Below are positions 5,561 to 6,504 of a DNA stretch of 64,000 bases, piece by piece. The notes under the pieces are model-generated. The model searched no databases. It was not told the origin of the DNA and saw nothing but the letters and a program-made list of their open reading frames with translations. The first letter of the stretch is position 1. Each line of letters starts with the position of its first letter. A program made the translations under genes and the position numbers. The DNA is from Octopus vulgaris (Eukaryota), in assembly GCA_951406725.2 (NCBI GenBank), contig OX597823.1, forward strand, positions 50,592,001 through 50,656,000, given 5' to 3'.

Positions 5561-5974
5561 ATACATACATACATACATACTTCGAAACGCGAAGTAGATG
5601 AAACAGGGACAACTGAAGAATGGGAATATTCCTTGTGCTGTATGTCTTGTAATCTGTTTTTTCGCTGTTTTTATGTTTTCGTTTCTCATTGTGTTCAACG
5701 TTTTTTTGATGTCCTGAACCCATATATACATGTATATATACATATATATGTAGGTATGTACATATATGTATGTATATATGCATATATTTATATATTATTT
5801 ATATTATACATTATATATATATATATATATATATATATATATATATATATATATATATATTCAGATGAATATGGTACTTAAGTTGAGGCACCAGAATTTA
5901 GGACGGTATTATCCATACAATTTCAGAGTACGGTGATTAAAATCAAAATAAACAATAAGGATATCCAAAGGTAA

Positions 5975-6061
5975 TGCAGTACGATCATTTCATGCAATTC
6001 CATTTAATTGAACAATGCAATCATTACATCAATTTAAAATTTAGAGCAATCTTCAGCTGCA
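5975..6061 (-). ncRNA. Type I hammerhead ribozyme-like motif (minus strand)
   Basis: TGCAG-CTGAAGA-long stem II-GAAA-TGATCG-TA-CTGCA. Confidence 0.6.
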
Positions 6062-6279
6062 CAAATACATAGAATTGAATTAAAATAGAACAGATGGACA
6101 CATTAGTATAAGTATACCTAAAATCTTCAAGAAGTTAAGGAGATAGACAAAGAACGTGTCACTACTTCAGCAGTAGAGACAACAAGTTCTTTGTCTAAAT
6201 CCTTAACCTACTGGAGATTTTAGGTATAATTATACTAATCTGTCCATCTGTTTTATTTGAGTAAATTTCTATGTTTTTG

Positions 6280-6366
6280 TGCAGCTGAAGATTGGTCTAC
6301 ATTTTGAATTGATATAATGATTGCATTGTTCAATTAAATGGAGTTGCATGAAACGATCGTACTGCA
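6280..6366 (+). ncRNA. Type I hammerhead ribozyme-like motif (plus strand)
   Basis: TGCAG-CTGAAGA-extended hairpin-GAAA-CGATCG-TA-CTGCA; core boxes intact, palindromic stem III, non-canonical base of stem II. Confidence 0.65.
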
Positions 6367-6504
6367 TTACCTCTGGATATCCTTGTTGCTTATTTTGATA
6401 TATATATATATATATATATATATATATATATATATATATATATATATATATATATATATATATATATATATATATATATATATATATGTATATATATATA
6501 TATT

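Follow-up and report, generated by a model that had tools for sequence, protein, structure and literature searches.

A palindrome with a hammerhead motif on each strand in the Octopus vulgaris genome, very probably a head-to-head insertion of a Penelope-like retrotransposon

Penelope-like elements (PLEs) have been described with an adjacent inverted, 5'-truncated copy and a tail on one side only (PMC8557442). In File S2 of the same paper, Penelope-13_HM is listed with an inverted 5'-truncated copy and with a hammerhead on both strands. The Hydra clade is characterised there by a DKT motif, a CxCx5C linker, the lack of CCHH in the endonuclease, (TA)n targets and a length generally below 3 kb, and a hammerhead core of the U-U type can be counted in File S2 for 14 of its 25 families. 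Dual hammerheads lying 100-700 bp apart on opposite strands have been ascribed to truncated PLEs, and low dimer activity is reported for metazoan PLE hammerheads (Cervera and de la Pena 2014, PMC4209133). For Poseidon PAc of Anolis, cleavage and extension of either DNA strand by the purified protein have been described (Frangieh et al. 2024, PMC11167929); reverse transcription starts from two internal sites that define the tail, and the RNA template is uncleaved (PMC11167929). Retrozymes, a further group of related systems, consist of head-to-tail tandem units that are cut to monomers (PMC7761336; bioRxiv 10.64898/2026.07.22.740005).

The locus described here is an imperfect palindrome in the window, the 64-kb stretch of O. 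vulgaris DNA that was analysed. Very probably, an abundant Penelope-like retrotransposon with Hydra-clade motifs contributed two of its 3' ends, both 5'-truncated and set head to head in (TA)n, likely in one event, with the hammerhead on each strand derived from the family 3' end. Neither the pairing of hammerheads on opposite strands nor the U-U closure is new for PLEs (PMC4209133; PMC8557442 File S2), and the locus alone matters little, being one decayed insertion among many. The remaining interest lies in the family, with its long-armed U-U hammerhead, its long 3' region and its strict pairing of short and long arms.

Structure of the palindrome and its hammerhead motifs

The preliminary description placed a palindrome at 5942-6399 between (TA)n tracts. 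The inverted repeat is real: two arms of 218 nt, 5942-6159 and 6182-6399, are 89% complementary around a 22-nt spacer, and their single-rod fold of -284.7 kcal/mol (z = -41) was equalled by 0 of 100 shuffles. The left boundary was misplaced. The (TA)n tract stops at 5860, not 5941, and the 81 bp at 5861-5941, which had been missed, are the reverse complement of the family 3' tail. As this tail belongs to the left arm only, the unit extends from 5861 to 6399 and is asymmetric. Its parts and flanks are as follows.

5722..5860, no strand: (TA)n tract, left flank; likely insertion target
5861..5941, minus strand: family 3' tail, carried by the left arm and lacking on the right; 79-95% identity to the tails of many copies
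5942..6159, minus strand: left arm, an inverted 5'-truncated 3' end; homology extends into the spacer, with the 5' end at about -198 relative to the cut
5974..6062, minus strand: type I hammerhead motif of the left arm; predicted cut 3' of 5980; stem III TGATCG; two stem II pairs broken
6160..6181, no strand: head-to-head junction of two truncated 5' ends, within the hot spot at -190 to -209 where family 5' ends cluster
6182..6399, plus strand: right arm, a 5'-truncated 3' end with a short (tail-less) 3' end
6279..6367, plus strand: type I hammerhead motif of the right arm, closed by U-U at 6292/6349, with pair 6295-6346 broken and the cut predicted after 6361
6398..6503, no strand: (TA)n tract, right flank

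The 5' truncations of the two arms lie at -194 and -198 from the cut site. No ORF of the Penelope-like family occurs within the 64-kb window, and the locus is a single head-to-head pair, with no tandem head-to-tail array at this position and no other family copy in the window. Dispersed repeats (D4, D5 and D8), which we take to be SINE-like, are present at 4500-4642 and, directly right of the palindrome, at 6766-7045.

On the plus strand the motif comprises stem I GTGCAG (6279-6284), CTGAAGA (6285-6291), a stem II region of 58 nt (6292-6349) and GAAA (6350-6353), followed by CGATCG, UA with the predicted cut after 6361, and CTGCAT (6362-6367). With the core boxes CUGANGA, GAAA and UH and with stems I and II present, it is a hammerhead motif of type I. 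A descriptor search of both strands of the 64 kb, with a descriptor composed after the motif had been seen, returned the two arm motifs as its sole matches, in line with the earlier claim of one motif per strand. The hammerhead appears on each strand because each arm bears the 3' hammerhead of the family. The stem II lesions are private to each arm, with one broken pair on the right and two on the left. The Rfam search that had been proposed as a check gave no hammerhead among its 34 matches at E<=10, and the long stem II may account for this miss. The family's putative hammerhead, closed by U-U and with 58 nt in its stem II region, is a natural variant missed by Rfam.

The closing pair G10.1-C11.1 is absent throughout the family and replaced by U-U, with U in 50/51 and 51/51 copies at the two positions and in 14/14 rows across two subfamilies. 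The U-U pair had been suspected of being an inactivating decay mutation; it is instead the family state, and it is shared with the 14 of 25 Hydra-clade families counted in PMC8557442 File S2. In common with the metazoan PLE hammerheads of PMC4209133, the motif is of type I, has a small palindromic helix III and a longer helix II, and occurs in dual form. It differs from the consensus given there in that the latter keeps G10.1-C11.1, and its helix II is much longer. The table in PMC8557442 likewise gives stems of 3-9 bp with short loops, as against the 58-nt stem II region found here, and two sequence motifs taken from the family hammerhead had 0 matches in the supplement of that paper.

Among the core boxes only N7 varies between lineages (13/51 shared variants), a position that is variable in the usual hammerhead numbering. 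In 14 hand-picked rows, 94.5% of stem cells are paired and 1 of 30 pairs has changed on both sides: the pair beside U-U is swapped from U-A to A-U in an older subfamily, one event between subfamilies. This single two-sided change faintly suggests a structure maintained in source elements.

Other type I hammerhead-like motifs were seen at L039:66 (+), L033:3123 (+), L064:7646 (+, with a second copy on the minus strand), L130:3051 (+), L063:3457 (+) and L147 near 214 (-). Several have a long stem II and a palindromic stem III (CATATG, CACGTG, CAGCTG, CTATGCATAG). They share no sequence relation with the family described here, and some matches to the loose descriptor will be due to chance. Long-armed hammerhead motifs may be frequent in the octopus genome.

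The parent family

A similarity search of the same genome (2.8 Gb, 227 contigs) with the arm returned 2,098 candidates, 40 of which were scored, and an exact 29-mer of the arm has 1,435 genome matches, as against 0 for the control. The arm is therefore a dispersed repeat, as the suggested copy-number check could show, with at least 1,435 copies counted as exact 29-mer matches. For the census of individual copies we used 95 of the first 100 listed 29-mer places, all on contig C1, a sample that is biased to copies with an unmutated 29-mer and covers one contig only.

Many copies continue downstream into the tail. Upstream, a walk along family copies led to locus L095, which is laid out as an inverted 529-bp 3' fragment followed by a 5'-truncated main copy; the two arms are 98.4% identical over 371 bp. 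The main copy contains two RT pieces (202 and 254 aa), a stretch rich in Asn and a GIY-YIG piece, then a non-coding part of about 3.4 kb (two insertions counted in), the hammerhead and the tail, and exceeds 6 kb despite its 5' truncation. A broken frame with RT and then GIY-YIG is found on the hammerhead strand of the longer copies (L095, L079), and the Penelope-like origin proposed earlier is thereby supported, the arms being the 3' end of this family. The walk found no intact full-length copy and did not reach the family 5' end. Locus L028 carries two direct copies of the 3' end. At L074, L079, L082 and L085, the family frame contains an Asn/Asp/Ser-rich triplet-repeat stretch between RT and endonuclease. 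Degenerate internal direct repeats of about 70-74% identity lie in the non-coding 3' region of L095, on its minus strand between endonuclease and hammerhead, and may explain the unusual length of this region.

A protein search gave five matches among 2,146 candidates. Three of these are RT-endonuclease proteins of 646-712 aa, which match L095 at 35% over 418-431 aa; for the intact homologue P0001, tblastn against L095 gave 35% over 431 aa (E 1e-66). The DKT and CxCx5C motifs of the family align with those of P0001. In the endonuclease, CxxC is absent between the two halves of the GIY-YIG motif and the CCHH cysteines are lacking. Pfam placed GIY-YIG below threshold in the family frame (E 0.01) and left RT unmatched, and a PDB search yielded nothing useful.

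Several of these features are those of the Hydra clade, namely the change of DKG to DKT, the CxCx5C linker, the lack of CCHH and the preference for insertion into (TA)n. The length of more than 6 kb departs from the clade, for which less than 3 kb is general, a typical and not a strict feature. We accordingly read the family as Penelope-like with Hydra-clade motifs, a placement suggested by these motifs. An assignment to Neptune from the cysteine linker was considered and dropped, as the Hydra definition fits instead. The family resembles the Hydra-clade PLEs described by Craig et al. (2021, PMC8557442) in DKT, the CxCx5C linker, the C-terminal GIY-YIG domain, the (TA)n targets and the sense-strand hammerhead near the 3' end, and is unlike them in its length above 6 kb and its non-coding 3' region of about 3 kb. 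Its tail measures about 85-100 nt, compared with 30-40 bp in the published description of PLEs. The family is distinct from Hydra-1_Obim, whose hammerhead and linker sequences differ from those found here. No description of the family appeared among the papers listed by the literature searches, though it may be catalogued in Repbase or Dfam; it is read here as a new family of a known kind.

Other coding remnants occur in the window. Fragments at 33042-34207 (-) and 54661-55482 (-) resemble another Penelope-like family with a CX2-5CxxC linker; Pfam gives GIY-YIG at 54661-55089 with E 1.9e-4, just below the cut-off, and leaves three other pieces unmatched. A remnant of a DDE_1 transposase (E 1.1e-14) is located at 41681-42202 (-). 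At 14278-15366 (+) lies an open frame whose second half looks similar to the C-terminal part of a LINE reverse transcriptase.

Decay, folding and traces of cleavage

The copies decay neutrally, core included. An intact core is kept by 34 of 52 motif-spanning copies, and its retention in both arms, which had been presented as noteworthy given their divergence, is therefore unremarkable: the chance of it is 0.19 when estimated from the arms' own divergence and 0.43 when estimated from 34/52. Across the 52 sampled copies, rare substitutions amount to 16/615 in the core and 137/5128 in the rest (P = 1.0). Selection on the core in source lineages was tested by lineage-shared variants, which are found in 1/12 core columns and 25/101 others, a difference that is not significant (P 0.29).

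In predicted folds of both arms and of copy L002, the hammerhead lies 5-10 kcal/mol above the minimum-energy structure. When the right arm or L002 is co-folded with itself, the stem III palindrome pairs intermolecularly but stem I does not form, so that activity is not demonstrated by folding. In the fold of the full element, all nine tested hammerhead pairs have probability 0.0, which agrees with the earlier prediction that a read-through transcript would sequester the ribozyme.

Regarding cleavage, some short inverted fragments start close to the cut, which prompted a test for a pile-up of 5' ends there. Of the sampled copies, 11/95 5' ends fall between +10 and -9 of the cut site, which is not above the average bin (P 0.39). 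The near-cut end pattern has 130 matches genome-wide. Exact-match scoring placed the start of 0 of 30 fetched matches at the cut itself; on visual inspection, roughly 10 of the 100 near-cut matches listed start there, with similar peaks at +6, +4, -3 and -9. An excess over neighbouring positions or bins being absent, 5' ends at the cut were rejected as a cleavage signal, and the 5' ends of the sampled copies hold no genomic trace of cleavage. Contigs from 4 of 24 listed runs, presumed to be RNA, overlie both arms with the letters of other copies; none covers 6167-6184.

Insertion ends and the origin of the palindrome

The 5' ends of the 95 copies are spread from the cut site to beyond -1000. 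The whole hammerhead is spanned by 59 of them, 84 extend more than 9 nt beyond the cut site, and in 76 the 3' end abuts a TA- or ATC-type simple repeat. The 84 copies that read past the cut site agree with the uncleaved RNA template described for Poseidon PAc (PMC11167929). A hot spot of 5' ends is located at -190 to -209, where 11 of 34 at-risk copies stop, compared with about 10% per bin elsewhere (P about 0.007 after correction for 17 bins). It coincides with a small predicted hairpin that has a similar six- to seven-base loop in different subfamilies, the stem sequences differing between them.

An adjacent inverted hit lies beside the 5' end in 45/95 copies, a count that leaves out matches to the TA tract in the reference. 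The inverted pLTR arrangement named in the preliminary description is thereby supported, as is its type I hammerhead with palindromic stem III. Two definable 3' ends are present in 35 of the 45 inverted hits; the other 10 stop before a 3' end and did not enter the asymmetry count. After merging of reciprocal rows, 29 of 30 distinct inverted pairs combine one short 3' end with one long end carrying the tail (P 3e-8), the two types being equally common in the sample (46 and 46 of 95); inverted hits L190 and L229 are possibly spurious, and the 30 pairs include two that nearly duplicate each other (L245). The window copy, with its tail on the left arm only, obeys this rule. A full hammerhead on both arms was found at nine loci among the 95 sampled copies, with nine different truncation points. 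Since each of these loci has its own junction, the palindrome is no propagating unit, and the recurrence that had been put forward for checking was not observed at them. Similar palindromes likely number in the hundreds in the genome.

The identity of the arms with the family, the RT and GIY-YIG frame of longer copies, the one-sided tail, the variable junctions and the neutral decay are observed and support an origin by PLE insertion. Judging from the insertions and from PMC11167929, the element protein would have cut both strands of the (TA)n target. We postulate that each target strand then primed reverse transcription on uncleaved element RNA, one from a short and one from a long (tail) start site, and that synthesis of both cDNAs halted at the small hairpin, some 195 nt upstream of the cut. 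Joining of the two truncated cDNA ends would have produced the head-to-head palindrome, which subsequently decayed neutrally, and the two-strand hammerhead would be a by-product of insertion. In active source elements, the hammerhead is likely a slow cutter of the element RNA, assisted by dimerization or by protein, and for the window copy the prediction is that read-through RNA forms a rod in which the hammerhead is blocked. The short/long arm pattern fits the two start sites of Poseidon PAc, the mechanism here being read from insertions only. Poseidon PAc belongs to another clade, and its ORF starts inside the hammerhead (PMC11167929), a difference from the present family, in which no ORF start was identified. 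The pairing in 29/30 cases is genome-scale support, from a different clade, for the priming of both strands from two RT start sites, as observed in vitro in one PLE. The window arms differ by 11% and have only one non-majority letter in common, as either one or two RNA templates, and either one or two events, would allow.

An alternative put forward in the preliminary description is a non-autonomous ambisense ribozyme element, spreading as a unit by rod-like or circular RNA, which, if true, would link PLE ends to viroid-like replicons. The window element resembles non-LTR retrozymes and viroid-like ambisense circles in being non-coding, hammerhead-bearing, PLE-related and rod-like in fold; each strand has its motif, the rod is very stable, and arms of similar length recur at L007 and L234. 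However, the similar lengths at these two loci are explained by the 5'-end hot spot, the junction sequence of L007 is unlike that of the window, and the nine sampled double-hammerhead loci all differ in truncation point. The copies show no selection, and the locus, known from DNA alone, is a single, unrepeated head-to-head junction and not a tandem head-to-tail array of the retrozyme kind. Neither ribozyme fold is predicted to survive in the rod, so unit-length cleavage is not expected. The palindrome thus fails to recur as a unit, its core shows no selection and its architecture is that of a published PLE insertion product; the data do not support an ambisense element, and we regard it as exceedingly improbable. 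Very little credence is also due to a palindrome formed after insertion, by a second independent insertion or a DNA fold-back rearrangement, or to a MITE or foldback DNA transposon. The arms are only 89% alike, and some DNA transposons have TA flanks like those seen here, but neither independent insertions nor DNA fold-back would be expected to give the strict one-short/one-long pattern (29/30). Furthermore, the arms come from the 3' end of an element that encodes RT, and their ends, lengths and junctions vary, with no recurring unit of fixed ends.

The hot spot admits a different explanation for the shortness of the arms. They could derive from a separate short RNA, begun at a pLTR promoter start at -190 to -209 and mobilised in trans in the manner of retrozymes, instead of being products of a premature RT stop. 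PLE pLTRs are reported to contain promoters (PMC6765202), and both window arms, together with the 11/34 at-risk copies, end in the hot-spot bin against about 10% per bin elsewhere. The small hairpin predicted there in several subfamilies would nevertheless explain an RT stop, and the majority of 5' ends lie elsewhere, which makes a short RNA of this kind unlikely. A fuller version, in which a pLTR-born RNA of about 240-340 nt with an unusually long-armed hammerhead is moved in trans by a Hydra-like protein, and a dimeric enzyme primes one RNA per cut strand at two fixed start sites to give double-hammerhead palindromes genome-wide, seems to us equally doubtful. Insertion of two 5'-truncated PLE 3' ends by two-strand priming is the reading we prefer.

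Very short inverted insertions were also observed, centred on the stem III palindrome or on the cut-adjacent GTAC, for example at G000:C6:57212641-57212698 and G000:C3:1765325. Among the near-cut matches listed, there are inversions joined via stem I complementarity. Both kinds may reflect snap-back or template switching at palindromes within the ribozyme itself.
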